A stretch of DNA of 25,125 nt from Phycisphaerales bacterium (GTDB taxonomy: Bacteria > Planctomycetota > Phycisphaerae > UBA1845 > G020352895). The stretch covers positions 1,819,120 to 1,844,244 of the forward strand of contig CP070685.1 in NCBI GenBank assembly GCA_020352895.1, written 5' to 3'. This document shows positions 1,041-21,082 of this stretch, piece by piece (positions within the stretch are counted from its first letter, which is position 1; every line of letters starts with the position of its first letter). Below the pieces are notes generated by a model. That model did not search any database, was not told the DNA's origin, and saw only the letters and a list, made by a program, of their open reading frames with translations. The translations under genes and the position numbers were made by a program.

Positions 1041-3146
1041 ATGACGGCGCGGTCACGAAAGAAAGGCAGCCGCAGAGCCCAAGCGGCGGCATCCCAGCCT
1101 CCGCCCAGGCCAGCCGCCGGCATCCCCCTGCGCCGCGTCCTGGTCCCCGCCGGCGTCGCCGCTCTAGTGGTCATACACTTTGCCCTGGCAGTCACCAGCA
1201 CGCGCGATAAGTGCTGCACGTTCGACGAAGTCGCCCACCTCACCAAAGGCTACGCCTTCTGGAAGTTCGACGATCATCGCCTCATGCCCGAGCACCCTCC
1301 GCTGGCTCACGCCTGGGCTGCGTTGCCGCTGCTGAACGAAAAGCTGACCTTCCCCGGCCGTGAACAGCCCGCCTGGTACAAGTCGAAGACTTACGACCTG
1401 GGCAAGGAGTTCTTTTACGGGCTCGGCAACGACCCGGACGCCATGCTTCGCCAGTCCCGTCGCATGGTCGCCATTCTCAGTGTCGCCCTCGGCGTCCTGG
1501 TCTTCGGCTGGTCGCGCCGCCTCTTCGGCACGGCCGGCGGTTTCGTATCGCTCGCCCTCTACACGTTCAGCCCCACTGTGCTCGCTCACGGCCGGCTGGT
1601 CACCACTGATCTGGCCGTCTCGCTCTTCTTCCTCGCCTCGGTCGGAGCCCTGTGGCGCGTTCTGCACCACATCGGCCCGTTGTCGCTTCTCGCCGGCGCG
1701 GCTGCGCTGTCCGGCCTGTTCCTCTCCAAGATGTCTGCCGTGCTCATCATACCCACAGGGCTCGCCCTGGTGATCCTGCGTCTCATCGTTGGTGCTCCTC
1801 TGGAGATCCGCTTCGGCAGCCCGCGCTGGCTTCGCCGCCGTTGGCAGCAGGCCATCATTTTCCTCGCCGTGATGGTCCTTTTCATCGTGGCCGTCTGGGC
1901 GGTCATCTGGACCGTCTACGACTTCCGGTACGAGGCCATGCTCGACGCCCAGCCCGACCGCGACGTCTTCTTCAGCCCCAACCGCGTGCCGCCCGGCAAG
2001 ACCGTCTGGGAGCACATGGGTCGCAGCATCCCCGCCACCGCGGCCGTCGTTGACTGGATGCGGACTGCCCACATCCTCCCCGAGAGCTACGTCTTCGGCT
2101 GGCTCTTTACCGTCCAGAGCGCCCGCGGCCGCGACGCGTTCCTCAACGGCGACCGCCGGCTGACCGGCTGGTGGCATTTCTTCCCGCTGTGTTTCGCCCT
2201 CAAAGTGCCTCTCGCCGTCATGGCAGTCGTGATCCTGGCCCTCGTGGCCGTCCTGATGGGGCGGGCTCGAAAGCCTGATGTTACGGAGAAGGAGCAGGGG
2301 AAGGGCGCCCGCTCGCCGCGGGGCATTGAGCCCACTCTGTACGACACCGCACCGCTGTGGATGCTCATGCTCGTTTATTGGGCCGTGGCCGTAACCTCGA
2401 ATCTGAATATCGGCCATCGCCACCTGCTGCCCACCTTCCCGCCCATGTTCGTGCTGTGTGGAGCGGCCGGGGCGTGGATGTACGCGTCCCGCAAATGGCT
2501 CCGCCCCGTCGTCCCCGTCCTGCTCGCCGCGCTCGCCGTCGTTTCGCTGCGCATCTGGCCGCACTACCTTGCCTTCTTCAACACCGTTGCCGGCGGTCCG
2601 GCTAACGGGTACCGGCACCTCGTGGACAGCTCGCTCGACTGGGGTCAGGACCTGCCCGTACTGGCTCGATGGCTCGACGCCAACCGTGGCCGCGGCCGCG
2701 CCTACGCCGCCTACTTTGGCACGGGCGACTGGAAACACTACGGTGTCAAAGCCCTGCCCATGCCCTACTATCTGCGCTCGGACGGCACGGGCACCTACGT
2801 TCTGGAGCCCGGCGCCTACTGCGTCAGCGCCACCCGCCTGCAACTGGTTTACCTGATCCCTACTTGCGAATGGACGAACGACATGGAGGCCGAGTATCGG
2901 CAACTCAAGCCCGAAATGGACGCCTTCGCCGCAGTTCCCAATACGCGCGAAGCCCGCGCCGCGGCCCTCGAGCAAAAGGACGGAGGCTTTCGATCGAGAT
3001 TCAACCGTTTTGCCCGACTGCGTTTCGCCCGCCTGTGCGCCTACCTCCGCGAGCGCCGGCCCGACGACCACGTCAACTACTCGATTCTCGTTCATCGGTT
3101 GAATGAGGAGGACCTGGTGGCGGCCCTCGAAGGGCCGCTACCTTGA
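1041..3146 (+). CDS. GT-C fold integral-membrane glycosyltransferase (ArnT/PMT-like, GT39/GT83-type, lipid-carrier dependent)
   Basis: 701 aa with an ATG at 1041 and an upstream AGGA. The protein has many predicted transmembrane helices. Near the N-terminus the first-loop motif 'TFDEVAH...YAFWKFDDH' resembles the DE/DxD catalytic loop of PMT/ArnT family enzymes. A large C-terminal soluble domain is present. Confidence 0.7.
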   Translation: MTARSRKKGSRRAQAAASQPPPRPAAGIPLRRVLVPAGVAALVVIHFALAVTSTRDKCCTFDEVAHLTKGYAFWKFDDHRLMPEHPPLAHAWAALPLLNEKLTFPGREQPAWYKSKTYDLGKEFFYGLGNDPDAMLRQSRRMVAILSVALGVLVFGWSRRLFGTAGGFVSLALYTFSPTVLAHGRLVTTDLAVSLFFLASVGALWRVLHHIGPLSLLAGAAALSGLFLSKMSAVLIIPTGLALVILRLIVGAPLEIRFGSPRWLRRRWQQAIIFLAVMVLFIVAVWAVIWTVYDFRYEAMLDAQPDRDVFFSPNRVPPGKTVWEHMGRSIPATAAVVDWMRTAHILPESYVFGWLFTVQSARGRDAFLNGDRRLTGWWHFFPLCFALKVPLAVMAVVILALVAVLMGRARKPDVTEKEQGKGARSPRGIEPTLYDTAPLWMLMLVYWAVAVTSNLNIGHRHLLPTFPPMFVLCGAAGAWMYASRKWLRPVVPVLLAALAVVSLRIWPHYLAFFNTVAGGPANGYRHLVDSSLDWGQDLPVLARWLDANRGRGRAYAAYFGTGDWKHYGVKALPMPYYLRSDGTGTYVLEPGAYCVSATRLQLVYLIPTCEWTNDMEAEYRQLKPEMDAFAAVPNTREARAAALEQKDGGFRSRFNRFARLRFARLCAYLRERRPDDHVNYSILVHRLNEEDLVAALEGPLP

Positions 3147-3239
3147 CCCTTGTACCCCTCGATTGGGGCGCATTCGATCCGACCGGCCATGCGCTGGTCG
3201 ATGTTGCCGCCGCGTCTTTCGCGCAGCAGAAGCCTTCGC

Positions 3240-3283
3240 GTAAAAACGCGTCAGGCGCCCGAGGGTCTGACTCGGGTGCCTGG
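3240..3283 (-). terminator. Rho-independent terminator downstream of TadG-like paralog 1 (conserved repeat copy)
   Basis: On the minus strand the hairpin CAGGCACCCGAG-(7 nt loop)-CTCGGGCGCCTG (plus-strand coordinates 3252-3282, one A·C mismatch) is followed by ACGCGTTTTTACGCG (T5). The same element recurs at 5150-5193 and 7066-7109. Confidence 0.55.
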
Positions 3284-3405
3284 GACGCGAACTTCACGCT
3301 GTGGCTGTACTTGAGACGGAAGGTTAAAAGATCGACCGGCCTGGCCTTGACCCGGGTACGCGAGGTGTTCAATGCTCGCGTGCCTCGTGTCGTCCGTCGT
3401 AGGCG

Positions 3406-4599
3406 TCAGCGCACCAGGATGGGCGAGTGGTACACGTTTTCGCTGGTCGTACCGTCGCCGCCGGATATGGCCGCGTCATCCATGGCGATACCAGGCTGGA
3501 CCACGACGCACTTCCTGGTCATGGCTCCTGTGAGATCGACGTGCATGATGCGGACGCCGGTGAACTTCACGATGGTGAAAAGGGCATTGTTGCCCGTGTC
3601 CGAAGCCGCGCTGAAAAGCGGGATCGTCCTGGACTGCCCCACGATGGCCTCCAGCGCGTCCGCCATGCCCGCGCTGAGGCCGGTGTCACCGGTCAGAGTG
3701 AAAGGCCCGTCGGCCAGGCTGAGTTCCCCGCCATGGTATTCCAAGTCCTCGGCTGAGACCCCGTAGAGAAGCTGACGCTCAATGTCTGCCGTGGCGTTGT
3801 TGGCCCCGCCGATGTCCACCGTACCGAAATTGCCCGGCGGCAACTGGTCGTCACCGGACCCGGGGTACAGATTGATCTCCGGGAGTCCGTCCGGCCCCGG
3901 CGTTACCTCCCCCGTCTGGGGGTCATAGGCCCAGTTGTCCTCAAAGACCGAATTCTGTCCGGCCAGAGTGCCGGTGAGCGTGTCCCAGAACGTCTCCCGC
4001 AGGGCGAACGGTATCAGGCCCGCGGTGGCCGTCTCCGAGCGTACCCTGAAGCCGACGATGCCGTACTGAAACGCCGCCGTCGCTTCGGCCACGAGGTCGG
4101 CGGTATCGATGCCCAGAATTCGGGCGAACATCAACGCCACGGGCCCGTTGTACGTCGCGTCGCGCCGGACGCGTACCTTGACCGCGTTGAACTCCGTCAC
4201 ATCGGAGAAGGTCATCGGCTCCCCCGTGTTGTACAGGTGGGGGAGATAGCCGATTACCAAGTCTCCGTCCGGCGCGTTGCCCGGGTTGTAGTCGATTTGC
4301 GGGCCGATCCCCAGTACGGGGTTGCTTCCGGCCACCGCGGCCGCTCGCTGACGCACCAACTGGAAGCTGGTCAGCAACTCGCCCTCACCGTGTAGCCGCC
4401 TTTCGTGCAGCAGCTCCATGGCGCCCGCCAAGGCCGCCGCGTCGGCCGCCACCTGGAGCTCGGTCTTGCCGAGGTACAACCTGCCGGCGTCCACCGCCAG
4501 GGCCGCGAACCCCAGCAGCACCACCCCCGACGCAGCCACGTATACCAGGATCGCACCGCGGCGCTTGTATTTGTTTCTATGATCCGAAGACGCTGACAT
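3406..4599 (-). CDS. TadE/TadG-like (Flp pilus assembly 'Tad' N-terminal domain) protein, paralog 1 of 3
   Basis: The ORF track gives 3406..4863. The start was moved to the internal ATG at 4597-4599 (Met89 of the track ORF) because the two paralogs start at the equivalent position and a strong RBS (AAGGAG, 7 nt upstream) precedes it. The N-terminus 'KRRGAILVYVAASGVVLLGFAALAVDAGRLYLGKTELQVAADAAALAGA' is the hallmark hydrophobic segment plus LQxAADAAALAGA motif of the TadE/TadG family (pfam Tad). The product is 398 aa. Confidence 0.75.
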   Translation of the reverse strand: MSASSDHRNKYKRRGAILVYVAASGVVLLGFAALAVDAGRLYLGKTELQVAADAAALAGAMELLHERRLHGEGELLTSFQLVRQRAAAVAGSNPVLGIGPQIDYNPGNAPDGDLVIGYLPHLYNTGEPMTFSDVTEFNAVKVRVRRDATYNGPVALMFARILGIDTADLVAEATAAFQYGIVGFRVRSETATAGLIPFALRETFWDTLTGTLAGQNSVFEDNWAYDPQTGEVTPGPDGLPEINLYPGSGDDQLPPGNFGTVDIGGANNATADIERQLLYGVSAEDLEYHGGELSLADGPFTLTGDTGLSAGMADALEAIVGQSRTIPLFSAASDTGNNALFTIVKFTGVRIMHVDLTGAMTRKCVVVQPGIAMDDAAISGGDGTTSENVYHSPILVR

Positions 4600-4834
4600 G
4601 TTAACTCCTTTCCAACTTCCGCTTCCGCTCTCTCTCACCACTCCGCATTCAACCAGCGTAGGAGTCGCAGGAATCTGGTCTCTCCGGTGCCGTCCGTAAC
4701 GACTCCCCCCGGCCTGCCTTGCCATAGCAGTTCCGGGAAAGGCACATCGAACGCCGAGGCCTTCACATTGCGGGGACACCGCGACCTTGCGCGACGTCTT
4801 AATGGGCAGATGATCAATGAGGAGATCATGCAAC
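4600..4834 (-). promoter_or_regulatory. Conserved structured 5' leader (copy 1) between the predicted TSS and the ATG, a candidate cis-regulatory RNA
   Basis: About 230 nt. It aligns with the leaders at 6511-6745 and 9175-9358. Conserved blocks include GGCACCGGAG, CUGCGACUC and GGAAAGGAGUNAAC-AUG. Two small hairpins covary: CGCG/GCGCA stems before GGUGU, and GGCG-UYUGAUR-CGCC. Confidence 0.35.
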
Positions 4835-4863
4835 ATGCTATGCCCCTGTGATGCCTGAGGCAA
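4835..4863 (-). promoter_or_regulatory. Sigma70-like promoter of TadG-like paralog 1
   Basis: On the minus strand: -35 TTGCCT (4858-4863), a 17-nt spacer, -10 TAGCAT (4835-4840). The same -35/17/-10 geometry is kept in two other copies although the spacer sequence differs. Confidence 0.4.
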
Positions 4864-4880
4864 ACGTGTGCAGGAGATTA

Positions 4881-4892
4881 GCGCTGACAGCG
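4881..4892 (-). promoter_or_regulatory. Conserved imperfect palindrome about 26 nt upstream of the -35 centre, a candidate transcription-factor site at about -60
   Basis: GCGCTGACAGCG (CGCTG-A-CAGCG). Equivalent sites ACGTTGTCAGCGT at 6792-6804 and CCTGACAGCGTT at 9407-9418 sit at the same distance from their -35 elements. Confidence 0.3.
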
Positions 4893-5149
4893 TTACTGTA
4901 TTAAGGTGGTTCCGAGAAATGCCTGGGTAATGACGCGAGCGGGGTGCGCTGCACGCGATACAATCCGCTTGATGCCTAAACGTCCGAATCCAACGGAGCT
5001 CACTCTGCTTATCGGCTGTGTGTCCACAGACAGCGGGGTGGCACTGTTTCTGCCCTGATGGCTGTACCGCTCCCCTGGGGCGAGTTCGATCCGGCTGGCG
5101 AGCGCCGGTCGGTCTTGCGTGAGTTCCTTCGCGTAGCCGATGCGTCCGC

Positions 5150-5193
5150 GTAAAAACGCGTCAGGCGCCCGAGGGTCTGACTCGGGCGCCTGG
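5150..5193 (-). terminator. Rho-independent terminator downstream of TadG-like paralog 2
   Basis: Perfect 12-bp stem CAGGCGCCCGAG/CTCGGGCGCCTG (5162-5192) plus T5 on the minus strand (plus-strand TAAAAACGCG at 5151-5160). Confidence 0.55.
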
Positions 5194-5316
5194 AACGCGA
5201 ACTTCACTCTGCGGGTGTACCTGAAGGCGAAAGGATAAAAGGTCGACCGGTCCAGCCCCGTTCCAGGCACGCGAGCTGTTCAATGCTCGCGTGCCTCGCA
5301 TCGGCCGTCATAGGCG

Positions 5317-6510
5317 TCAGCGCACTAGGACGGGCGGGTGGTACACGTGTTCGCTGGTCGTACCGTCGCCGCCGAATATGGCCCCGTCATCCATGGCGAT
5401 AGCAGGCTGGAGCAGGACGCACTTGAACTTCATCGCCCCGGTGAGCTTCGCGTCCATGACACGGACGCCCGCGAACTTCACGATGGTGAATACGGAGTTG
5501 TCGCCCGGCCCCGAAACCTCGCTGAAAAGCGGGATCGTCCGGGGCTGCCCGATGATGGCGTCCAGCTCGTCCTTGAGGCCCGAGCTGAGGCCGGTGTCAC
5601 CGTTCAGGATGAACGGCCCGTCGGCCAGACTGAGCTCCCCGCCATGGTACGACAGGTCGTCGGCCGAGACCCCTTCGAGAAGCTGACGCTCAATGTCTGA
5701 AGTCGCGTTGTTGTCCCCACCGATGTCCACCGTACCGAAGTTACCCGGCGGCAACTGCTCTTCACCGACCCCGGGGTACAGATTCAACTCCGGGAGTCCG
5801 TCCTGGCCCGGCGTCACCTGCCCCGTCAGCGGGTCATAGGCATAGTTATCCTGGTAGTTCGCGTTCTCTCCGGCCACAGTGCCCATGAGCAGGTCCCAGA
5901 ACGACTCGCGCAGGGCCATCGGCATCAAGCCCACGGTGCCCGTCTCCGAGGGGGCCCTGAAGCCGATGATGCCGTGGTGAAACGCCGCCGTCGCTTCGGC
6001 CACGAGGTCGGCGGTCTCGATGCCAAGGACCCGCGCGAACATTAAGCCCACCGGCCCATTGTGCGTCGCGTCCCGCCGCACGCGTACTTTGACCGCATTG
6101 AACTCGGTCACATCGGAGAAGGAAATCGCCTCCCCCGTGTTGTACATGGTGCTGAGATAACCGATCACCAAGTCGCCGTCCGCCCCGTTGTCCGGGTTGT
6201 AGTCGATTTGTGGGCCGATCCCCAGAACGGGATTGCTGCCGGCCACCGCGCCCGCTTGCTGACGTGCCAACTGGAAGCTGGTCAGCAACTCGCCGTCACC
6301 GTGCAGCCGCCTCTCGTTCAGCAGCTCGTTGGCGCCCGCTAAGGCTGCCGCGTCGGCCGCTACCTGGAGCTCAGTCTTGCCCAGGTACAGCCTGCCGGCG
6401 TCCACCGCCAGGGCCGCGAACCCCATCAGCACCACCCCCGACGCAGCCACGTATACAACGATGGCTCCGCGGCGCTTGCAGCTATGTCTATGTTCAGAGT
6501 GCGTGGACAT
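5317..6510 (-). CDS. TadE/TadG-like protein, paralog 2 of 3
   Basis: 397 aa with an ATG at 6508-6510 preceded by AAAGGAG. The N-terminus is 'KRRGAIVVYVAASGVVLMGFAALAVDAGRLYLGKTELQVAADAAALAGA'. Identity to paralogs 1 and 3 is about 75% by eye over the full length. Confidence 0.8.
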   Translation of the reverse strand: MSTHSEHRHSCKRRGAIVVYVAASGVVLMGFAALAVDAGRLYLGKTELQVAADAAALAGANELLNERRLHGDGELLTSFQLARQQAGAVAGSNPVLGIGPQIDYNPDNGADGDLVIGYLSTMYNTGEAISFSDVTEFNAVKVRVRRDATHNGPVGLMFARVLGIETADLVAEATAAFHHGIIGFRAPSETGTVGLMPMALRESFWDLLMGTVAGENANYQDNYAYDPLTGQVTPGQDGLPELNLYPGVGEEQLPPGNFGTVDIGGDNNATSDIERQLLEGVSADDLSYHGGELSLADGPFILNGDTGLSSGLKDELDAIIGQPRTIPLFSEVSGPGDNSVFTIVKFAGVRVMDAKLTGAMKFKCVLLQPAIAMDDGAIFGGDGTTSEHVYHPPVLVR

Positions 6511-6745
6511 GTTTACTCCTTTCCGGCTTCCGCTTCAGCTCTCCCCTGCCAATCCGCGTCCCACTAGCGGACGAGTCGCAGGGATCCGGCCCCTCCGGTG
6601 CCGTCAGTAACGATCTTCCCCCGGTCAGCCCTGCCCTAGCAGTCCGGGGAAGGGCGCATCAAACGCCGGGGCCTCCACACTGAGGAAACACCGCGATCAT
6701 GGGCGCGGTTTTTATGGGCAGATGGTCAATGCAGAGACCATAGCA
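6511..6745 (-). promoter_or_regulatory. Conserved structured 5' leader (copy 2)
   Basis: See copy 1. It contains the CGCG-cccatgat-CGCG hairpin and the GGCG-tttgatg-CGCC hairpin. The leader has no open reading frame: an ATG is followed by a stop within 10 codons. Confidence 0.35.
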
Positions 6746-6774
6746 CATATAAGATTCTGTGATGCGCAAGGCAA
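6746..6774 (-). promoter_or_regulatory. Sigma70-like promoter of TadG-like paralog 2
   Basis: -35 TTGCCT (6769-6774), 17-nt spacer, -10 TATATG (6746-6751) on the minus strand. Confidence 0.4.
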
Positions 6775-7065
6775 GCGTGTGCAGGAGATTAACGTTGTCA
6801 GCGTCCTTGTAACAAGGTGGCTCCTAAAAAACGCCTGGGCGACGACGCATGTGGGATGCGCTTCACGCGATACAATCGGCCTCGATGTCCACCGTCCGCA
6901 TTCAACGAAGCTCTCTCTGCTTATCGGCCGTGTGTTGACAGACAGCGGGGTGGCACTGGTGCTGCCCTGACGGCTGCACCCCTCGCTTTGGGCGAGTCTG
7001 ATCCAGCTGGCCATGCGTCTGACGGTTCTGGGTGTGTGCGTTCTTCGCGCAGCGGAAGCGTCCGC

Positions 7066-7109
7066 GTAAAAACGCGTCAGGCGCCCGAGCGTTTGACTCG
7101 GGCGCCTGG
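7066..7109 (-). terminator. Rho-independent terminator downstream of TadG-like paralog 3
   Basis: Perfect stem CAGGCGCCCGAG (7078-7089) / CTCGGGCGCCTG (7097-7108), loop CGTTTGA, and T5 on the minus strand (plus-strand AAAAA at 7067-7071). Confidence 0.55.
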
Positions 7110-7234
7110 GACGCAAACTTCGCGCTGTGGCGGTACTTGAAGGCGATAGGGTGGAAGCTCTGGCGATCAGTCCCCCCGACCCGGGCACGCGAGCTGTTCG
7201 CTGCTGGCGTGCCTCGTGTCGACCGTCTTGGGTG

Positions 7235-8422
7235 TCAGCGCACCAGGCACACCGGATGATACACGTTGGTGCTGGTGTCACCGTCGCCGGGTATGGCCGC
7301 GTCGTCCACGGCGAGAGCAGGCTGGAGCATGACGCACTTCTTGTTCATCGCTCCGGTGAGCCTCACGTGCATGATGCGGACGCCGACGAACCTCACGATG
7401 GTGAACATGGAGGTGTCGCCCACACCCGACACCTCGCTGAACAGCGGGATCGTCCGGGTCTGCCCGACGATGGCCTCCAGCGCGTCCGCCATGCCCGCGC
7501 TGAGGCCGGTGTCACCGGCTAGAACGATGGGCCCGTCGGACAGATTGAGCTCCCCGCCATGGTACTCCAGGTCCTCGGCCGAGACGCCGTCGAGAAGCTG
7601 ACGCACAATATCCGCCGTGGAGTTGTTGGACCCGCCGATGTCGATCGTACCGAAGTTGCCCGGCGGCAACTGGCCCTCGCCGGACCCGGGGTACAGATTC
7701 AACTCCGGGAGTCCGTCCTGCCCCGGCGTCACGTGCTCGGTCAGGGGGTCATAGGCCCAGTTGTCCTCATAGACCGAGTTCTCTCCGGCCAACGTGCCCA
7801 TGAGCGTGTCCCAGCACGTCTCCCGCAGGGTCAGAGGCATCAGGCTCGCGTTGCCCGTTTCCGGGGTGACCCTGAAGCCTATGATGCCGAAGTGAAACGC
7901 CGCCGTTGCCTCGGCCACGAGGTCGGCGGTCTCGATGCCCAAAGCCCGCGCGAACATCAAGGCGACGGACCCGTTGTACGTCTCGTCGCGGCGCACGCGA
8001 ACCTTGACCGCATTGAACTCGGTCGGATCCAATAAGGAAATCGACTCCCCGGTGTTGTACAGGTGGGGGAGATAGCCGATCACCAGGTCGCCGTCCGCCG
8101 CGTTGGCCGGGTTGTAGTCGATTTGCGGGCCGATCCCCAGAACGGGATTGCTGCCGGCCACCGCGCCCGCTCGCTGACGCGCCACCTGGAAGATGATCGC
8201 CAACTCCCCAAGGCCGTGGATCCGCCTCTCGTTCAGCAGCTCATTGGCGCCGGCCAAGGCCGCCGCGTCGGCGGCTACCTGTAGCTCAGTCTTGCCGAGG
8301 TACAGCCTGCCGGCGTCCACCGCGAGGGCTGCGAACCCCGCCAGCACCACCATCGAAGCAACGAGGTACACTACGATGGCTCCGCGGCGTTTGCCGGCTC
8401 TATGACAAGTACGCGCTGACAT
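7235..8422 (-). CDS. TadE/TadG-like protein, paralog 3 of 3
   Basis: 395 aa with an ATG at 8420-8422 preceded by AAGGAG. The N-terminus is 'KRRGAIVVYLVASMVVLAGFAALAVDAGRLYLGKTELQVAADAAALAGA'. Only 35 nt separate it from the upstream gene, and that spacer retains just the last, RBS-bearing part of the leader. Confidence 0.8.
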   Translation of the reverse strand: MSARTCHRAGKRRGAIVVYLVASMVVLAGFAALAVDAGRLYLGKTELQVAADAAALAGANELLNERRIHGLGELAIIFQVARQRAGAVAGSNPVLGIGPQIDYNPANAADGDLVIGYLPHLYNTGESISLLDPTEFNAVKVRVRRDETYNGSVALMFARALGIETADLVAEATAAFHFGIIGFRVTPETGNASLMPLTLRETCWDTLMGTLAGENSVYEDNWAYDPLTEHVTPGQDGLPELNLYPGSGEGQLPPGNFGTIDIGGSNNSTADIVRQLLDGVSAEDLEYHGGELNLSDGPIVLAGDTGLSAGMADALEAIVGQTRTIPLFSEVSGVGDTSMFTIVRFVGVRIMHVRLTGAMNKKCVMLQPALAVDDAAIPGDGDTSTNVYHPVCLVR

Positions 8423-8457
8423 GTTAACTCCTTTCCGGCTTCAGCTTCACGTCTCTG

Positions 8458-9174
8458 CTACGACAGGGGGTTGAACAGTCGCGAGTAGGGGGTGTCGCCG
8501 CCGCCTTGGTCGGCCTGCTCACCCTGGTACACCACCTTGGGCACCGAGTCCGTGCCCAGCAGCCCGTCGGCGCCGTAGTAACGCACCTCGGTAATGACCA
8601 ATGAGTCCACGCGGTTCGAGCCGTAGGTGATTACCGAATTGGCAGCCGATACGTTAGTGTCATAATTGTTCAGAGAGGCGATGGGCGCCGTCCCCTGAAT
8701 TTGAAGGCTGTGGCCCCCGAACGCGCCCCACGTGGCGGACTGCCCGTTGATAATCGCGAAGGTCAGGACCGCCCCGTTGGTCTCCATGGTTTGGGTCCAG
8801 CGGAGGGTCTCCGCGGTGGTGCTCAGTTCATTCGAGCTGAAGTCCCGGTGCAGCCGGCACTCGTCGTCGGCCCAGCCCTGGATCTGAAGGCCGCCCGGGG
8901 CGAAGTCCGGCAGTTCCCGCCAGTTCCAGGTCACCTGAGCGTACAACGAATCGAGGTCCCCCACCGGGGACATCACCGTGTGAAACTGCGGTGCGTGTAC
9001 CGCTTGGTCCGGTTCGTTTAACACCAGCTTCCAGTCCTGTTCGATCCGCAGGATTGGTTCCGGCTCATCCTGGGACCCTGAGATGGGAATGGCCACGACC
9101 AGAACGGCCGCGACACAGGCCAACACCGGCAGCTTTGGGCCGCCAAGCTTAAACGAGCTGCGCACGCACACCAT
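8458..9174 (-). CDS. Secreted protein of unknown function with a Sec signal peptide, co-transcribed upstream of TadG-like paralog 3
   Basis: 238 aa with an ATG at 9172-9174 preceded by AAGGAG. The N-terminus 'MVCVRSSFKLGGPKLPVLACVAAVLVVAIPISGS' has a basic n-region followed by a hydrophobic h-region. The remainder is rich in Ser, Thr, Asn, Gly and Trp and is probably a beta-rich fold. It is driven by its own copy of the conserved promoter and leader. Confidence 0.6.
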   Translation of the reverse strand: MVCVRSSFKLGGPKLPVLACVAAVLVVAIPISGSQDEPEPILRIEQDWKLVLNEPDQAVHAPQFHTVMSPVGDLDSLYAQVTWNWRELPDFAPGGLQIQGWADDECRLHRDFSSNELSTTAETLRWTQTMETNGAVLTFAIINGQSATWGAFGGHSLQIQGTAPIASLNNYDTNVSAANSVITYGSNRVDSLVITEVRYYGADGLLGTDSVPKVVYQGEQADQGGGDTPYSRLFNPLS

Positions 9175-9358
9175 CGCGTTTCTCCTTGAATACGGTCACC
9201 AGTTATGCTGTACCAGAGCCCAGACGGGTGCGTGCCCGGTCAGCCCTCCCATGGCGGTCCGGGGAAAGGCGTATCAGACGCCGGGGACTCCACACGGCGG
9301 ACACCGCGCACTCGTGCGCAGTGTTCATACGCGGATCGCCGGTGAGGAGACCATAGCA
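9175..9358 (-). promoter_or_regulatory. Conserved structured 5' leader (copy 4), upstream of the secreted-protein gene
   Basis: Contains the GCGCA-cgag-TGCGC hairpin followed by GGTGT, the GGCG-tctgata-CGCC hairpin, the CCCCGGAC and GGGCTGACCGGG blocks, and an AAGGAG RBS. Confidence 0.35.
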
Positions 9359-9387
9359 GATATATGATTCCAGTAGGCCCCGGGCAA
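9359..9387 (-). promoter_or_regulatory. Sigma70-like promoter (copy 4)
   Basis: -35 TTGCCC (9382-9387), 17-nt spacer, -10 TATATC (9359-9364) on the minus strand. It is flanked by the conserved CACACGCTTGCC and TGCTATGGTCTC blocks. Confidence 0.4.
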
Positions 9388-9563
9388 GCGTGTGCACCAA
9401 ATCGGTCCTGACAGCGTTCCAGTAACAAGGTGGTTCCGAAAAAGCCCCGACCGATAACGCAAGGATCGCGCCTCAGGCCGATGTGTTTTCCGTCCAAGCC
9501 TCACGCCCGCATTTGACGAAGCGGGCTGCTTATCGCCCGTTTGTTGACGACGGATGGTACAAG

Positions 9564-10697
9564 TCAGTTGCCACCGTTGTCGTTCTCTCGGATGAGGCTC
9601 CTCACGTGACCGACAAGGTCGCCCGACCCGAGCACGAACGTGGTCCGGGCACCGGTGAGGATCTCCTGGAGCATTTCGAGTTCCTTGATTCGCGCGAGAG
9701 CGGGATTGTCCGTCAGCAGTCTCGCTGTGTTGGCCTGGCTGCGTGCGGCCGCGGTTTCCTCACGCCGCTTGATGATGTTGGCCTGGGCCTCTTTCTCCGC
9801 GGTGATGACCCGGTTGAGAATATCTCTCATTTCCCCGGGGAGAATGATGTCGCGCAGGCCCACGCTCTTGACGGCGACGCCGAAGTCGTCCGCCCGCTGT
9901 TGCAGCGCGCTGCGCACCTCTCCACCAATCGCCTCTTTATCGGCCAGCATGACGTCGAGGCTCCGCGTGCCCACCACCGCCCGCAAGGCCAACTGGGCCT
10001 CTCGGTAAAGCGCCTGCCCGTAATCGTCCACAACCGTCGCCGCCTTGACCGCATCGGCCACCTGGTATGTAACCAAGAGATTGACGCGCAGGCTGACCTT
10101 GTCGCTCGTGATGATCTCCTGCCCGGACACGTCAATGAGTTGCTCGCTTGTGTCGACCCGTTGCCATTCCACGTCGCCTGCGGCACTCCAAAACGCGTGC
10201 TTGCCGTCCCGATATGTGCTGACCAGGCGCCCGTTGTGGAACACAAGGCACTCCTGTTGAGGCTCAACCAACATGGACTTGAGGTGGTAGGAGCTGTCCT
10301 TGTGTGCCAGGACGGCTTCGAGGTGAGGGTGCTCAAGACGGAGGTCCTGTACGTTGAAAGTCTCGACATGCAGGTGATAGGGCTCCTTCCAGAAGGCGTG
10401 TCGGCCGGCGCCGAGGATCCAGCCGAGACGGCCGTCCTTCCAGACCAGGGCGCGCTCATCATCCCTCAGGTCGACCACGTACAGCGCCTCGCAAACGTCT
10501 CCGTGGGTCAGCAGGACGTCAAGCAGCGGATGCACGAATCGCGTACTCAGAGTATCCACAACCTGGATCTCGTCGCGCTGCCGATTCCACAGCCGCCCCC
10601 ACAGGCGGTATGTCCCCGGGCCCAGCAGTCGCACAAAGTCGCCATAGTGGAACAGCAGGCCGCGCTCGTGTTGTCTGATGCGAGTGAAAATGCTCAT
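9564..10697 (-). CDS. SPFH/band-7 (stomatin-prohibitin-flotillin-HflK/C; slipin-like) domain protein
   Basis: The ORF track gives 9564..10778. The start was moved to the ATG at 10695-10697 (MSIFTRIRQ...) because GGAGGGG lies 8 nt upstream. The C-terminal half, '...VSLRVNLLVTYQVAD...ITAEKEAQANIIKRREETAAARSQANTARLL...ARIKELEMLQEI', is typical of SPFH. The N-terminal ~200 aa show no obvious transmembrane helix. Confidence 0.7.
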   Translation of the reverse strand: MSIFTRIRQHERGLLFHYGDFVRLLGPGTYRLWGRLWNRQRDEIQVVDTLSTRFVHPLLDVLLTHGDVCEALYVVDLRDDERALVWKDGRLGWILGAGRHAFWKEPYHLHVETFNVQDLRLEHPHLEAVLAHKDSSYHLKSMLVEPQQECLVFHNGRLVSTYRDGKHAFWSAAGDVEWQRVDTSEQLIDVSGQEIITSDKVSLRVNLLVTYQVADAVKAATVVDDYGQALYREAQLALRAVVGTRSLDVMLADKEAIGGEVRSALQQRADDFGVAVKSVGLRDIILPGEMRDILNRVITAEKEAQANIIKRREETAAARSQANTARLLTDNPALARIKELEMLQEILTGARTTFVLGSGDLVGHVRSLIRENDNGGN

Positions 10698-11589
10698 GCT
10701 CTTTCCCCTCCTGTGTTCAGTTGGTAGGGAGCGGTCACGTTTCGGGTGCGTCCCCACACGCGGGTGCCTGGCAGGCAAGTCTCATCCCCGGTGGCTCAAC
10801 CGAAGGCAACGTGTTCTCCCGGACCAAAAGGCCAAGTTGAGAGGCTGGACCACAGCGGGCCACGCCCCCGCGGCGGAGTCCTGCTTGAGACGCGTCAGGG
10901 ATCCGTCCGCCGCGGCCGTGATTGAGCTTTCCTCCCACTGGATCACGGCCGGGCGACAGGATGTGGCACGTCGGTATCCGCACGACTGCGAGGCCGCGAT
11001 GGCGCTGCCGCGCGGACTTCGGCTCGAAGCGGTCAAGCGCTTCAAACTGAAGGCTCGAGCGGCCGGCCGGGCTGCCGGTGCAGCCCCCCAACCGACCAGG
11101 AGGGGGTAAGGCGGTCCGCATAGGGCGCGGGCCGTCCTGAGGGGTGGGCTTCGTCAATGCCTTCGACACTGTAGCCGGAACGCACATCGGTAAGTACGCA
11201 GATACACCATGCGCGCCGTCAGCTAGCATCGAGCGAAGTTCATACACCGTTGCTTCGGTGCTTTTCATTCCATCTGCCGCTTCCATCGAGGCGACGGCCG
11301 GGCCGGATTCGACCGTTTGCATCTCGTGCATGGTGCCCGGCCTTGCTCTTCCTTCTGGGACTCCCATCGGGAGCCCGGTGCAGGATTAACCATAGCAACG
11401 ATGCGGTGGCTGGCAAGTGTAAGATGGTTATGATTTTGGTTATCGTCGGCCTTGACGTGAGCGTTAACACCCGCGTTTGCCGTCGGCATGTTCCGTGACG
11501 ACCGGAGCCCGCGCGCGACGAGCTCCTTGATGCCCTGCCGAGCCGTTGGCGTTTTTCCTGAACGGCTGCTTTGGCGAGCCTCGTGCTGC

Positions 11590-12066: not shown

Positions 12067-12604
12067 GTTGGCTCTCTCCCCTCTCCGATGTTGAAGCCAG
12101 TCGGTTACAGACCCGAACCGCTGCGCGCCGCGTTCGCGCGGGTAGCTCTGCCCGGCCGACGGGGACTGGGGTAGATCCACCTCTGTGGCGCGCGTACGCG
12201 CAGAACAAAGCTGCGTTACGTAGTCAGGCGCAACTATCGCACTCTGTCACGGCACGAGCGACCCACCTGCTGCCGCTCTGGTCAGCCGCGTACGACCTCC
12301 GGCTGACCAGGACAACAAGCTGATGCGGCGTGGTTTTCCTGGCGACGGTACGCAAATGTAGGATGAGAAAACGGTAGAGTCTGGCATGTCTCTCCCTCCT
12401 TCCAGACAGGCAGGAATCGCTTGTGCCGCGTTGCGCGCCCTCAACTTCGGCGGGCACAAGCACACACAACCTCCACAATGGTCAGTATACGCGGGCAGCC
12501 GCGCGTGTCAAGTGCTCGACGCACCCAGATTCTGTGGCCATGTGCTGGCCCGTACCCGCGCGCAGCGGTGGCCGGGCGAGCGACGGGCAGTTACTATCCC
12601 CTCC

Positions 12605-13117
12605 ATGAAGGCGGTCACTATCTACACCGACGGGGCGTGTCAGGGAAACCCGGGGCCGGGGGGCTGGGCGGCGATCCTGAAGTACGGGCGGACGCGGCGA
12701 GAGATCAGTGGATCGTCGCCAGCGACGACGAACAACCGCATGGAGCTGACCGCGGCCATCGAGGCCCTGCGGGCCCTCAAGGAGCGCTGCCGCGTCGATC
12801 TGCACACCGACTCGACGTACCTGCAGCAGGGCATGACCAGTTGGCTGGCTGACTGGAAGGCCCGCGGATGGAAGACGGCCGCCAAGAAGCCGGTCAAGAA
12901 CCGTGACCTGTGGCGGGCCCTCGACGCCCAGGCCGCGCGGCATGACATGCACTGGCACTGGGTCAAGGCTCACAACCTGCACCCGGAGAACGAGCGCTGC
13001 GACGAGCTGGCCGTCGCTGCCATCGAACAGCTCCGCGCCGAAATCGGCGAGGCCGCCATTGCCCGGGCCATGCGCGCGTTCCGATCGGGCGACGATCCCA
13101 ACACCCTTTTCCAGTGA
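12605..13117 (+). CDS. rnhA: Ribonuclease HI
   Basis: '[25 protein letters not shown]...[17 protein letters not shown]...[28 protein letters not shown]...[21 protein letters not shown]' matches the RNase H catalytic D-E-D-D signature. The start is set at the ATG at 12605, because the track ORF extends upstream without any homology. Confidence 0.85.
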
Positions 13118-15435: not shown

Positions 15436-15472
15436 TGCCCGATCGCCGTCGCGGCAGGTGCGAAAGGACACG

Positions 15473-16897
15473 ATGCCCTCTTCTTCAAAGATAGATTCGG
15501 TCGCCATCGGCTCGGATCATGCCGGCTTCGGCTTGAAGAAGCATCTGCGCGAGTATCTCGAGAAACAGGGCTACCGTGTGGAGGACTGCGGCACGTTCAG
15601 CGAAGACCCCGTGGATTACCCGCGCATCGCCCACGCGGTGGCGGGACGCGTGGCCGGCCGGCGCGCCACCTTGGGCATCGTCATCGACGGCGCGGGCATC
15701 GGTTCGGCCATGGCTGCCAACAAAATGCCCGGAGTCCGCGCCGCCTTGTGCTACGATCTTTCCTCGGCGCGCAACAGCCGCGAGCACAACAATGCCAACG
15801 TCATGACACTCGGAGCCCGCCTGATCGGCGGGGGCCTGGCCGAGCAGATGGTCGATGTCTGGCTGACCACCGAGTGCACTGAGGAGCGCCACCTGCGGCG
15901 GGCGGCCATGATCGAGGATGTCTCCGGGGCTCCGTCCGTATCATCCGGCAATCCCTCGGCGACACCTACGCCTCCGGCCGACGCACCGCCCACGGGCGAC
16001 CTGGCCGGCCTGTCCGGCGAGGACCTGCAGCGCGTCGTGGAGCGCATCGCCGCCATCATCAGCACCGGTCAGGTACTGCCCTCCGGTCTGGGCGGCTCCT
16101 GCGCGGAGTTGCTCTGTCGGCTGGCCCGGGAATCCGGCCGTACCGATCCCGAGACCGTCCGGCATTTCATCGGCCTGGGTGCCGACCGGGTCGGCCATCG
16201 CCCGGGCGACGGCGAATTGCCCAGGGACATCGCCGAATACATCGATCACACCCTGCTGCGCCCCGACGCCACCCGCGAGGAAATCATCAAGCTTTGTCAG
16301 GAGGCCCGCCAGCACTCCTTCGCTTCCGTGTGTGTGAACCCGACCTACGTCACCCTGGCGGCCCGTGAGTTGAAAGGTACGCCGGTCAAGGTGTGCACCG
16401 TGGTCGGCTTTCCGCTGGGAACCCACACTCCTGAGATTAAGGCCATGGAGACCCGCCGGGCCATTCGCGAAGGCGCCAGGGAAATCGACATGGTCATTAA
16501 CGTGGGCGCGCTCAAGAGCGGCGACGACGAAACGGTCCTGCGCGACATCGCGGCCGTGACCGAAGCCTGCCGTGACGGCCGTGCCATTTGCAAGGTGATC
16601 ATTGAGGCGGCCCTGCTGACCGACGAGGAGAAGGTCCGGGCCTGCCAGTTGGCTCGCCGGGCCAAAGCCGATTACGTCAAGACCTCCACCGGTTTCGGGC
16701 CGGGCGGGGCCACCGCCCACGACGTGGCCCTGATGAGCCGGACCGTTCGCGAGGCCGGCATTGGCGTCAAAGCTGCCGGTGGCATCCGCAGCTTCGCTGA
16801 CGCCCAGAAAATGATCGAGGCCGGGGCCACCCGCGTGGGGGCCAGCGCCGGCGTCAAGATCGTCAAGGAGGCCAAGGACGTGACCGAGTCCGTTTAG
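15473..16897 (+). CDS. deoC: Fusion protein: ribose-5-phosphate isomerase B (RpiB/LacAB) N-terminal domain, a Pro/Ala/Ser-rich linker, and deoxyribose-phosphate aldolase (DeoC) C-terminal domain
   Basis: The ATG at 15473 has an AAAGGA RBS; the track begins at a GTG at 15458. The N-terminal '[35 protein letters not shown]...[28 protein letters not shown]...[12 protein letters not shown]' is RpiB-like. The C-terminal '[11 protein letters not shown]...[10 protein letters not shown]...[11 protein letters not shown]...[14 protein letters not shown]...[14 protein letters not shown]...[14 protein letters not shown]...[10 protein letters not shown]' is DeoC-like and includes the Schiff-base Lys region. 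Confidence 0.85.
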
Positions 16898-16919
16898 TCT
16901 CAGCGGGAGGACCGATTAC

Positions 16920-17546
16920 GTGGTAGATCTTCGTTCCTACGTGTTTCTGGACAGCCTTCAGCCCCAGTACGCCGCCTTCCTGGGCACCGTGGCTCAAGGG
17001 TTTCTCCCTATCGCCGGCATGGCCTCGCTCTACGTGGAGATCTCTCCGGGTATCGAGATCAACCGGATCACGGACATCGCCTTGAAGTCCACACATGTCA
17101 CCCCGGGCATGCAGATCGTCGAACGGCTCTATGGGTTGCTGGAGATCCACTCCGAATCCCAGGCCGACGTGCGCCAGGCTGGCCGGGCCATCCTTTCGGC
17201 TCTGGAACTGGACGAGAAGGATCGGCGCAAACCGCGCGTCCTGTCCTCGCAAGTTATCCGCCGCATCGACGACCACCAGACGCAGTTGATTAATCGCATG
17301 CGTCACGGCAACATGATCGAGCCGGGCCAGACCCTGTACGTGATGGAACTGGAGCCAGCGGCCTACGCCGCTTTGGCGGCCAACGAGGCCGAGAAGGCCG
17401 CCAACATCAACATCCTTGAAGTCCGCTCCTACGGCAGCTTCGGCCGCGTGTACCTGGGCGGCGAGGAACGTGACATCGACGTCGGCTACCGCGCCGCCGA
17501 AAGCGCCATCGCCGGCGTCACCGGACGCGAAGCGGAACAAAAGTAA
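16920..17546 (+). CDS. Tandem BMC-domain shell protein (BMC-T-like), copy 1
   Basis: GTG start at 16920 preceded by GGAGG. Two BMC-like halves are present: '[56 protein letters not shown]' and '[60 protein letters not shown]'. Both parallel the (L)GxIE...A.A.DA..KAA.V.L pattern seen in the canonical BMC-H that follows. Confidence 0.6.
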
Positions 17547-17586
17547 GCCTATTGCCAACCTGAATATGCATTGAGAGGTATCGAAT

Positions 17587-17901
17587 ATGGCAGAAGCCCT
17601 GGGAATGATTGAGACGCGCGGATTTGCCGCCATGGTCGAAGCTTCCGACGCGATGGTCAAAGCGGCCAAGGTCGAGCTGGTCAGCTACGAGAAGATCGGC
17701 GGCGGCTACGTGACGGCCATCGTGCGCGGCGATGTCGCCGCGGTCCGGGCGGCATGTGAGGCGGGACAGGCGGCGGCATCACGCGTCGGCGAGATCGTCT
17801 CCGTGCACGTCATCGCCCGTCCGCACACCAATATCGATCTGGTTCTTCCTCTGGGTCGGACCGAGCAGGTCAAGGCCGAGGTCAAGAAGATCACCAGATA
17901 G
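17587..17901 (+). CDS. BMC-H hexameric shell protein (PduA/EutM/CcmK family)
   Basis: '[60 protein letters not shown]' is the canonical BMC domain. 104 aa, ATG at 17587. Confidence 0.9.
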
Positions 17902-17976
17902 TCCCGACTTCTCCGCTTGCAGGCCTCCGCCTGTGGTCGCGTCCGTCGCGGCCGCTACGCGGAGCGAGGAGGACGG

Positions 17977-18273
17977 ATGTTATTGGCCAAAGTCATCGGT
18001 ACCGTGGTGGCCACGCGCAAGGAGCAGAGCATGGAAGGGCTGCGCTTCATGCTGCTCCGCCAGGTGGATCTGGACGGTCACGAGTCCGGCGGGCACGTGG
18101 TCGCCGCGGACGTGGTCGGCGCCGGCCCCGGAGAGATGGTCCTCTACGCCACGGGCAGCTCCGCCCGCCAGACCGTCGCAACGGACAAGCGCCCCTGCGA
18201 CGCGGTGATCATGGCCATCGTGGATAACTGGGAAGTCAACGGCCAGATCAAATACAAGAAGGGAGCCGAATGA
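17977..18273 (+). CDS. BMC-P pentameric vertex protein (EutN/PduN/CcmL family), paralog 1
   Basis: The ATG at 17977 ([17 protein letters not shown]...) has a GAGGAGG RBS; the track starts at 17917. '...[11 protein letters not shown]...[24 protein letters not shown]...[13 protein letters not shown]' is typical EutN/CcmL. Confidence 0.85.
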
Positions 18274-18296
18274 CCCGTTTCCTCGGGCGCTGACCC

Positions 18297-19757
18297 ATGG
18301 CCGGACTGACCGAACAACAGGTCGAACGCATCGCTCGCCAGGTGGTCGAACGTCTCGGCGGGGCAGTCCCCGTCCCCGGCGTACCGGCTTCGGCCGCAGC
18401 GCCTGCGGCGGCGGTTCCCCCCGTCGAGCTCGTCGAGGGCATCTTTGCCGACGTGGACTCGGCCGTTCATGCCGCCGCCGCCGCACAGCGCGAACTGATG
18501 GGAATGACCATCAAGAAGCGCGATCAGATCGTCGCCAGCATCCGCCAGGCCATGGCCGCCAACTGCGAGTCTCTGGCCCGGATGGCTCACGAGGAAACCG
18601 GCCTGGGACGCATCGAGGATAAGATCGTCAAGAACTCCACCGTCACCGAGAAGACGCCCGGCACCGAGGACCTCACGCCGGACGCTCGTTCCGGTGATCG
18701 CGGGCTGGTCCTTTTCGAGCCCGCGCCCTTCGGCGTCATTGGGGCGATCACGCCGATTACCAACCCGACCTCCACCATCATCTGCAACACCATCGGCATG
18801 GTCGCGGCCGGCAACGGAGTCGTGTTCAACGTGCATCCCGGTGCCAAGCGCTGCTCGGTACACAATGTCTACCTGATCAATCAAGCCATCCTGAAGGTGG
18901 GCGGCCCCGCCAACCTGGTCACCGCCGTGGCCGAGCCGACCATCGAGTCCGCCCAGGCCCTCATGAAACATCCCGACGTGAACCTCATCGTCGTGACCGG
19001 CGGGCCCGGTGTCGTGCGGGCGGCCCTCAACAGTGGCAAACGGGCCGTTTGCGCCGGCCCCGGCAACCCGCCCGTGGTCGTCGACGAAACTGCCGACCTC
19101 GAGCAAGCCGGCCGCGACGTCGTCTACGGCGCCTCATTCGACAACAACGTCGTCTGCGTCGACGAGAAGACGCTCATCGTCGTTGACTCGATCGCCGACG
19201 AGTTGGTGCGATCCATGACCCGGCAGGGGGCCATCAGGCTGACACCCGTACAGGCCCGCCAGATGGAGCGGGCGCTCTTCGTCGAGAACAACGGTCCCGG
19301 CAAACCGTCCGTCGTGGACAAAGACCTGATCGGCCGGAACGCCAACGTGATCCTCGCCCGCATCGGAGTCAAGGCGGATGCTTCGGTGCGCTTGGCCGTC
19401 ATGGAGGTTCCCGCCGATCACACTCTGGTGTGGACCGAGCAACTCCTGCCGGTCCTTCCCATGGTCCGGGTCAAGACCGCCGACGAAGGCATCGACCTGG
19501 CCGTGCGCTCGGAACAGGGCATGCGTCACACGGCCGTCATGCACTCCAAGAATCTGGACAATCTCAGCAAGATGGCCCGCGTGATGAACTGCAGTATTTT
19601 CGTCAAGAACGGTCCGGCCGTCGCGGGACTCGCCGCCGGCGGAGAGGGCTATTGTTCCTTCACCATCGCCAGCCCCACGGGAGAGGGCCTGACCAAGGCC
19701 CGCCATTTCTCCCGCGCCAGACGCTGCACCTTGGTGGACCACTTTCGAATCGTATGA
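18297..19757 (+). CDS. CoA-acylating aldehyde dehydrogenase (PduP/EutE-type BMC signature enzyme)
   Basis: 486 aa. The N-terminal ~60 residues are Ala/Pro/Val-rich and look like an encapsulation-peptide or linker region. 'GAITPITNPTSTIICNTIGMVAAGNGVVFNVHPGAKRCS' is the PduP/EutE active-site region with the catalytic Cys in 'VVCVDE'. Its stop overlaps the next start (ATGA at 19754-19757). Confidence 0.85.
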   Translation: MAGLTEQQVERIARQVVERLGGAVPVPGVPASAAAPAAAVPPVELVEGIFADVDSAVHAAAAAQRELMGMTIKKRDQIVASIRQAMAANCESLARMAHEETGLGRIEDKIVKNSTVTEKTPGTEDLTPDARSGDRGLVLFEPAPFGVIGAITPITNPTSTIICNTIGMVAAGNGVVFNVHPGAKRCSVHNVYLINQAILKVGGPANLVTAVAEPTIESAQALMKHPDVNLIVVTGGPGVVRAALNSGKRAVCAGPGNPPVVVDETADLEQAGRDVVYGASFDNNVVCVDEKTLIVVDSIADELVRSMTRQGAIRLTPVQARQMERALFVENNGPGKPSVVDKDLIGRNANVILARIGVKADASVRLAVMEVPADHTLVWTEQLLPVLPMVRVKTADEGIDLAVRSEQGMRHTAVMHSKNLDNLSKMARVMNCSIFVKNGPAVAGLAAGGEGYCSFTIASPTGEGLTKARHFSRARRCTLVDHFRIV

Positions 19758-20374: not shown

Positions 20375-20378
20375 TGAC

Positions 20379-20651: not shown

Positions 20652-20696
20652 GAGTCCGGCCACAGCCGGCTGGAATGTCGGTGTCCGGGGGTTCCC

Positions 20697-20999: not shown

Positions 21000-21082
21000 C
21001 GTGCCGTGGCCGGCGTGGGCATCCGTGACAGGAACTCACAGGATACCGCCGCGGCCCTACATAGAGGGATGACAGAAGGTCA

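Follow-up and report, generated by a model that had tools for sequence, protein, structure and literature searches.

A tandem array of TadG-like genes in a Phycisphaerales bacterium, probably formed by triplication of a transcription unit with loss of a conserved partner gene from two copies

Results

Three TadG-like genes and a putative secreted-protein gene lie in a threefold direct repeat

We analyzed a 25,125-nucleotide (nt) stretch of a high-GC Phycisphaerales metagenome-assembled genome (hereafter, the window; NCBI assembly GCA_020352895.1, contig CP070685.1, positions 1,819,120 to 1,844,244), focusing on an array of three genes for TadG-like proteins and a fourth gene, X, for a putative secreted protein. 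The four open reading frames (ORFs) that a first-pass annotation of the sequence had picked out are all present on the minus strand, at 8458-9174 (gene X), 7235-8422, 5317-6510, and 3406-4599 (TadG-like paralogs A, B, and C, respectively), and the encoded proteins are identical to NCBI entries JSU68_07780, 07785, 07790, and 07795. A repeat finder and alignments resolved the array into a direct repeat of ~1911 nt in three head-to-tail copies, 1911-1915 nt apart. Each unit consists, in order, of a ~230-nt spacer, a ~100-nt promoter-like region, a ~225-nt leader, a coding sequence (CDS), and a 3' untranslated region (3'UTR) that has an 11-bp palindrome and then a GC-rich hairpin with U5 behind it. 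The 3' end of the leader in the repeat unit is GGAAAGGAG-N6-ATG. Thus, the alignments bear out the repeated layout of three promoter-leader copies, ribosome-binding sites (RBSs), and three terminators that had been proposed for this locus. Downstream, the array converges on a plus-strand gene for a PMT_2-family glycosyltransferase-like protein (1041-3146); upstream, it is preceded by a minus-strand SPFH/Band 7 gene (9564-10778).

All features of the array described below are on the minus strand. Unit A begins just past the stop codon of the SPFH gene with a partial inter-unit spacer (9446-9556), which has a GCGATAAGC block and is 54-63% identical to the spacers of units B and C. The promoter-like region of unit A (9345-9445) contains a TGCACACGCTTGCC block (9383-9396), a -35-like TTGCCC (9382-9387), a 17-nt gap, and TATATC (9359-9364); an alternative extended -10 element, TGCTATGGT, could be read from the sequence at 9350-9358. 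In the 5' leader of unit A (9175-9344), positions 9233-9344 are common to units B and C, while positions 9175-9232 are specific to X and include an AAGGAG RBS (9182-9187). Gene X encodes a 238-amino-acid (aa) protein with an N-terminal signal-peptide-like hydrophobic segment. In effect, X and its own RBS split the leader, with its first ~112 nt on one side and its last 35 nt on the other. These last 35 nt form the X-TadG spacer (8423-8457), which carries the GGAAAGGAG RBS and is homologous to the 35 nt that close the leaders of units B and C. As the first-pass annotation had noted, the first TadG-like gene sits 35 nt behind X, and all that it retains of the leader is the tail with the RBS; this tail is 80-83% identical to those of the other units. 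The gene encodes paralog A (395 aa; JSU68_07790), and unit A ends with a terminator (7060-7112) whose 13-bp GC-rich hairpin (7078-7108) can be extended by GCGU/ACGC and is followed by U5.

Unit B comprises a spacer (6835-7059) that has a CAGTGCCACCCCGCTGTCTGT...GCCGATAAGCAG block, a promoter-like region (6732-6834) with TGCACACGCTTGCC at 6770-6783, and a leader (6511-6731). Between the 5' part (6618-6731) and the RBS tail (6511-6545) of this leader are 72 nt of middle leader (6546-6617), for which there is no counterpart upstream of X. The leader is followed by the gene for paralog B (397 aa; JSU68_07785; AlphaFold2 predicted local distance difference test score, 87.7) and a terminator (5144-5204; hairpin at 5162-5192, then U5). 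Unit C has a spacer (4924-5143) that is 78% identical to that of unit B, a promoter-like region (4820-4923) with TGCACACGTTTGCC at 4859-4872 and a -10-like TAGCAT, a leader delimited by alignment with the other units (4600-4819), the gene for paralog C (397 aa; JSU68_07780), and a terminator (3234-3294). Lastly, a partial fourth copy of the spacer (3150-3233), 69-73% identical to the B and C spacers, closes the array, and the repeat stops at the 3' end of the PMT_2 gene.

Non-coding DNA appears to drift at about the synonymous rate

We aligned the coding and non-coding parts of the three units separately. The TadG-like proteins are 76.5-77.6% identical to each other, in line with the ~75% noted previously, and their CDSs are 83-85% identical at the nucleotide level. 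Third codon positions are 78% identical and four-fold degenerate sites 76-80%; the synonymous divergence (dS) between paralogs is 0.28-0.32, and the ratio of nonsynonymous to synonymous divergence (dN/dS) is 0.46-0.51. For the non-coding segments, identity between units is 54-78% in the spacer, 69-73% in the promoter region, 69-80% in the 5' leader, 78% in the middle leader (B versus C only), 74-81% in the 3'UTR, and 80-86% in the 35-nt RBS tail. The orthologous intergenic region of a related locus, L001, is 75-77% identical. The sole segment that is significantly over-conserved is a 49-nt terminator block (90-96% identity; P=0.0003-0.013 versus the rate at four-fold sites).

The first-pass annotation had described near-identical promoter-leader modules that were better conserved than the genes they serve, and had attributed this to strong purifying selection or gene conversion. 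Neither description survives the alignment: apart from the RBS tail and the terminator, non-coding identity (54-81%) does not exceed that of the CDSs, and it equals the identity at synonymous sites, an outcome that the annotation itself had named as one that would refute its reading and point to a plain duplication. The alignments give no sign of unusual selection acting on a portable module. They suggest instead that the non-coding DNA is drifting at about the synonymous rate and that only small elements, namely the terminator, the RBS, and the -35 block, are being kept constant.

The terminator hairpins are the most constant of these elements. Their predicted folding energies are -36.1 kcal/mol (z -6.3) in unit A, -35 kcal/mol (z -4.7) in unit B, and -28.1 kcal/mol (z -3.95) in unit C. 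In all three units, the hairpin is followed by G and U5, the form of a putative intrinsic terminator. A 25-nt stretch of it is the same in the three copies and is absent from the rest of the window. A terminator scan called the A and B copies; the C copy (hairpin at 3252-3282, then U5) was not called. The perfect hairpin plus T5 that had been ascribed to every TadG unit is indeed perfect in two of them, but has one A.C mismatch in the third. Moreover, the L001 terminator differs by two C-to-U changes that retain G.U pairs on the sense strand only, and thus fits a terminator that acts at the RNA level.

We also noted a second conserved palindrome, not mentioned in the first-pass annotation, ~21 nt past each TadG stop codon (7184-7214 in unit A, 5265-5295 in unit B, and 3355-3385 in unit C), with an 11-bp stem, GGCACGCGAGC/GCTCGCGTGCC, and no U-tract. 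The stem is perfect in unit B, has one mismatch and no T-run in unit A, and forms 9 of 11 pairs in unit C; pairing in the L001 copy is retained via G.U changes. The palindrome may be an mRNA-stabilizing stem-loop or a protein-binding site.

Gene X is a conserved partner of TadG-like genes

Gene X had been described as unrelated to the TadG-like genes and taken as a sign that module and cargo had been shuffled. The X protein has no match among Pfam, NCBIfam, or PDB sequences; it is predicted to be a ConA-like lectin/jelly-roll (galectin-like) beta-sandwich. The X family comprises ~750 clusters at 50% identity, all of them stand-alone proteins of ~200-280 aa. Three metagenome contigs with TadG homologs (51-57% identity) have, just upstream, a Pfam-less gene for a 210-243-aa protein that is 44-58% identical to X. 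A scan of GTDB species genomes with an X alignment yielded 43 loci from Phycisphaerae, Planctomycetia, and relatives, of which 40 were informative (the other three are truncated contigs). By tblastn, a TadG-like gene adjoins X in 40 of the 40 informative loci, immediately downstream on the same strand in 38 and immediately upstream in two. When all ORFs were clustered, X and TadG were the only gene families common to most of 45 loci.

Because X adjoins a TadG-like gene in every informative locus, X-TadG appears to be an ancestral two-gene module, with unit A as its ancestral form. X, the only non-TadG gene that the repeated expression module serves, is therefore a conserved operon partner and no foreign cargo, and nothing points to a shuffling of module and cargo. 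Within the array, no copy of the module stands before an unrelated cargo gene.

A TadE-like gene recurs in 10 of the loci and lies after TadG in Planctomycetia. In the Planctomycetia-type loci L029, L031, L033, L040, L044, L047, and L048, it encodes 140-180 aa with a canonical RRGAA-VE-A motif, and the gene order is X-TadG-TadE; the Phycisphaerae loci are without a TadE-like gene. We also noted that, relative to all of its homologs, the X protein of this genome is extended at the C-terminus by 19 aa (8458-8517; QADQGGGDTPYSRLFNPLS). The extension appears to read into the former X-TadG spacer, which is 83 nt long in the related locus L050 and 35 nt here.

The X-less units are shared with a relative, and gene conversion maps to the CDS

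In L001, a close relative whose TadG-like proteins are 85% and 81% identical to those described here, both X-less units recur with the same leader and beside the same PMT_2 gene. L050, another relative, whose X is 84% identical, also carries this promoter and 5' leader before X, and the region upstream of its X has CCGGGCACGCACCC and the RBS in common with the unit A leader. Because these arrangements are shared, the duplication and a single loss of X appear to predate the splits from L001 and L050.

The tree of the three paralogs is nearly a star: its three groupings are backed by 98, 81, and 75 informative sites. Site patterns of a kind tend to lie together along the sequence (runs test, P=0.002), and the quartet sites that include L001 are likewise mosaic (runs test, P=0.013). 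Within CDS nt 52-515, 17 quartet sites group the paralogs within a genome, as expected from conversion, and two group the orthologs. The corresponding counts are zero and nine in CDS nt 543-767, and one and five in the last 134 nt of the leader. These counts indicate that the gene conversion suspected by the first-pass annotation is real, though it lies in the conserved 5' coding part (CDS nt ~50-515) and not in the regulatory module; the leader shows orthology between species instead.

Behind X in L050, the TadG-like ORF (L050:1331-1879) loses all similarity after ~50 codons. This suggests a frameshift, which could mark a pseudogene or stem from misassembly, the contig being of low coverage. 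In another Phycisphaerae lineage, we found an independent and older TadG duplication behind X (L002:8578-11197 and L021:4799-7264). Copies 1 and 2 are orthologous between these two genomes and are separated by a GC-rich hairpin; in L002 and L021, the TadG1-TadG2 spacer bears no similarity to the DNA upstream of X that would indicate co-duplication of a promoter. A scan of genome contigs with a single TadG protein found no relatives in a collection that does not contain the source genome.

The promoter-like region contains a conserved block, and the leader does not behave as a structured RNA

The TGCACACGCTTGCC block occurs three times in the window versus 0.46 times expected, and a TGCACACG(C/T)TTGCC block is present in all copies and in both L001 and L050. 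The -35/17/-10 promoter that the first-pass annotation had read here matches the sigma-70 consensus at 4/6 + 4/6 positions, which is below the threshold of our consensus scan; at that threshold, the scan found no promoters on the minus strand. A promoter assignment of the region is plausible. A sigma-54 reading of CTGCACACGCTTGCC was also considered and rejected on reading the sequence, as it has no GG doublet and a GG-to-GC spacing of 10 instead of 11.

Next, we examined the leader. A whole-window Rfam scan gave no match in the leaders at E<=1. RNAalifold on five leaders returned a covariation term of +0.32, that is, no support, and the leaders fold no more stably than shuffled sequences (z +0.64 for unit B, -0.11 for unit C, and -0.34 for unit A). 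A leader profile (nhmmer) run against all fetched loci matched only the same locus in close relatives; in other Phycisphaerae, nothing conserved could be detected upstream of X. A metagenome scan with the pattern TGCACACGYTTGCC-N27-30-ATGRTC gave 24 unrelated matches, none with similarity to TadG, X, or the leader, in a collection that does not contain the contig of L001. By all three marks of a structured RNA (known family, covariation, and excess stability), the leader came out negative.

The leader starts with an anti-Shine-Dalgarno-like UCUCC that pairs with the AGGAG of the RBS in the minimum free energy (MFE) folds of units A (9340-9350 with 9181-9187) and C (4815-4825 with ~4606-4612), and not in that of unit B. 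In these folds, the pairing could reflect chance or translational occlusion. Further upstream, the spacers of unit B (6940-6985), unit C (5025-5070, minus strand), and L001 (~1545-1590) share the 21-nt block CAGTGCCACCCCGCTGTCTGT, followed by GCCGATAAGCAG. The CAGTGCCACCCCGCTGTCTGT block lies ~150 nt upstream of the -35-like element and is identical in B, C, and L001 amid DNA that is ~77% identical; L001 has a 56-nt deletion just upstream of it, and unit A retains only its GCGATAAGC part. The block may be a regulator binding site. Inverted repeats of invertible promoters and simple-sequence tracts, both potential devices of phase variation, were also looked for, and only the within-unit hairpins were found, with nothing like an invertible element.

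The TadG-like proteins share a pilin-like architecture and diverge fastest at the C-terminus

The assignment of the three paralogs as TadE/TadG-like holds up in searches with hidden Markov models. All three score 44.7-45.7 bits against Pfam Tad (PF13400; cut-off 22.3 bits; E~1e-11) and 29-35 bits against Tad_C (PF09977; cut-off 22.1 bits). Each has a pilin-like layout, with a long hydrophobic helix at the N-terminus and a beta-rich globular part after it, and the N-terminus of the family reads RR-G/A-X4-(L/Y/F/M), here RRG-AIVV-Y. A vWA domain with a MIDAS motif was not found in the paralogs, and the array holds no TadE- or TadF-like gene. The dN/dS is 0.25-0.36 at residues 1-62 and 96-180, versus 0.72-0.94 at residues 291-397; judged by these ratios, the C-terminal domains appear to be the fastest diverging part of the proteins. 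The general idea of diversified pilin-like surface proteins put forward by the first-pass annotation was right.

Discussion

Collectively, our results suggest that the array is probably an ordinary and fairly old tandem triplication of a whole transcription unit, with X lost from two of the copies. The ancestral unit would have consisted of a spacer, a promoter, a 5'UTR, X, an RBS spacer, a tadG-like gene, a 3' hairpin, and an intrinsic terminator. We propose that this unit was duplicated head-to-tail and that X was then lost once from a duplicate, which would have fused the X promoter and 5'UTR to the tadG RBS spacer. The X-less unit would subsequently have been duplicated again. All of these events, the loss of X included, would predate the split from the nearest relative sampled, in which the same X-less units are found. 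Afterwards, the non-coding DNA would have drifted at about the synonymous rate, with the terminator hairpin and U-tract, the RBS, and the -35-region block staying constant. Short conversion tracts would have homogenized the 5' third of the CDS, which encodes the pilin-like helix, and the C-terminal domains would have diverged fastest. As each unit retains a promoter-like region behind a strong terminator, the three paralogs are probably transcribed separately.

The first-pass annotation had favored a different origin, in which a portable promoter-leader-terminator cassette was recombined onto different cargo genes and kept near-identical by selection or conversion. Such a cassette would accommodate the three promoter-like and leader copies, one of them before a gene of a different family, as well as the 25-nt terminator string that is identical in three copies and the presence of some gene conversion in the locus. 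However, X is a phylum-wide neighbor of TadG-like genes, the module is no more similar between units than four-fold sites are, the conversion tracts are in the CDS while the leader follows orthology, and, of 76 related or pattern-matched loci searched with the leader profile, only this same locus in close relatives gave a match. We consider the cassette highly improbable. There is also little to recommend, on balance, the idea that the ~225-nt leader is a structured cis-regulatory RNA, resembling a riboswitch or thermosensor, that controls each TadG copy. A long leader is found in all units, in L001, and in L050; a small hairpin, GGCGU-loop-ACGCC, is retained with A-U and G.U changes; and the 5' UCUCC can pair with the RBS in two of the MFE folds. 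Against this stand the Rfam, covariation, and stability results given above, an identity between copies that is at the neutral level, and the fact that, in other Phycisphaerae, no such conservation is detected upstream of X.

Somewhat less remote, though in our judgment still unlikely, is that the copies are redundant duplicates, kept for dosage or already decaying, and that the C-terminal divergence reflects relaxed constraint. The overall dN/dS is high for a structural protein, all the more so in the C-terminal third, and two units are without their partner X. Nevertheless, the three ORFs are intact and full-length after a dS of ~0.3; every unit has kept its RBS, promoter block, and terminator; the two-copy state has been kept in L001; and the independent TadG duplications beside X in L002 and L021 persist, with copies that are orthologous across species. 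Moreover, the N-terminal dN/dS shows that purifying selection has continued.

Several observations weigh against parts of the triplication and of the function that we propose for its products. At the junction where X would have been lost, the middle leader of units B and C has no significant similarity to X in local or spliced alignments, and its resemblance to the longer L050 spacer between X and TadG is suggestive at best (one of four tests, P=0.018). The weak match of the promoter hexamers to the consensus means that the units may be read through or co-transcribed. The C-terminal dN/dS, being below 1, is compatible with relaxed constraint as well as with adaptive diversification. A prepilin-peptidase site has the form G/A-X4-E/F; across 60 members of the family, the residue at +5 from the putative G/A cleavage site is L, Y, F, or M and never Glu, which makes pilin processing uncertain. 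Lastly, tad/cpa, type II, or type IV machinery domains were found in none of the 20 largest other ORFs of the window, and no tad/cpa machinery (CpaF/TadA ATPase, TadB/C, or secretin) lies next to the module in the 45 related loci; the link to a Tad filament is hence drawn from domain homology alone.

With these caveats, and by analogy with what is known of TadG, CpaL, and KilN, the three proteins are likely to be alternative minor pilins or tip proteins of the TadG type, with a partner that resembles a lectin. They would be membrane-anchored subunits of a Tad-type filament that is encoded elsewhere in the genome, and X would be their secreted carbohydrate-binding partner. According to the first-pass annotation, such an architecture is not known to have been described for Tad pseudopilins. 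Myxococcus, however, has four paralogous KilLMN (TadE/F/G-like) tip complexes in which the C-terminal domains of the large pilins are variable (PMC12075869), and Caulobacter CpaL is a TadG-like minor pilin at the tip (PMC12607857). As in the Kil (Tad-like) pilus of M. xanthus, the genome studied here has several large TadG-like minor pilin paralogs, the large pilin's C-terminal domain is variable and has no PDB homolog, and, as proposed for the Kil paralogs, the paralogs might serve as alternative filament tips. Unlike in M. xanthus, only the TadG-like gene is amplified, in a direct tandem in which each copy has its own promoter-like region, leader, and terminator. The array also lacks TadE- and TadF-like genes and linked Tad machinery, and the partner is a non-pilin secreted protein that is predicted to be lectin-like.

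The paralogs resemble Caulobacter CpaL (PMC12607857) and the TadG proteins of Aggregatibacter and Pseudomonas in having a Tad hydrophobic segment after an RR-G/A motif, a pilin-like module with a large C-terminal extension, and the Tad_C domain. They differ from these in having no vWA domain or MIDAS motif, in lying outside a tad/cpa operon, and in belonging to a ~390-aa family that is specific to Planctomycetota and always paired with X. In the modular minor pilin PilC of Streptococcus sanguinis (PDB 7oa7/7oa8), a lectin module is fused to the pilin, whereas X is a separate Sec-type secreted protein encoded upstream; the likeness between X and the PilC lectin module is at the level of the fold only (3-13% identity). 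As for its evolution, the array shows the same head-to-tail duplication of gene and flanks, patchy conversion, and divergence of exposed domains as an ordinary tandem segmental duplication with concerted evolution, and we see no essential difference from ordinary tandem paralog arrays of bacterial surface proteins. It is thus a worked example of a unit that was copied, with a gene deleted, neutral drift of non-coding DNA, small elements kept constant, and conversion confined to the 5' CDS.

A by-product of this analysis is a conserved and unannotated X/TadG-like gene pair in Planctomycetota, with an X family for which there is no Pfam or NCBIfam model. Metagenome-assembled genomes assigned to Rhodopirellula and Fuerstiella are among those with the pair. 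As a tentative and possible extension of our proposal, X and the TadG-like protein could make up an undescribed two-component filament-tip adhesin across Planctomycetota. In Phycisphaerae, docking of the secreted, lectin-like X onto the TadG-like minor pilin would take the place of TadE/TadF, and the three paralogs, each with its own promoter and terminator and a fast-evolving C-terminal domain, would be exchangeable tips that share, or compete for, a single X. Because the surface appendages and attachment of Planctomycetota are poorly understood, the pair is worth testing as a concrete candidate for a pilus-tip adhesin.

Other features of the window

The whole-window Rfam scan also returned a weak CRISPR-DR8 match at 12590-12625 on the plus strand (22.6 bits versus a gathering threshold of 39; E 0.88). 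It is single-copy, lies within an RNase H ORF, and is almost certainly a chance match. Further along, positions 15458-21757 hold a planctomycete-type bacterial microcompartment (BMC) cluster that resembles the fucose/rhamnose-degrading BMC of Planctomycetes. Its genes include those for an RpiB-DeoC fusion (15458-16897), an aldehyde dehydrogenase (18297-19757), a BMC-domain shell protein (in the frame 19430-20374), and a class II aldolase (21083-21757).

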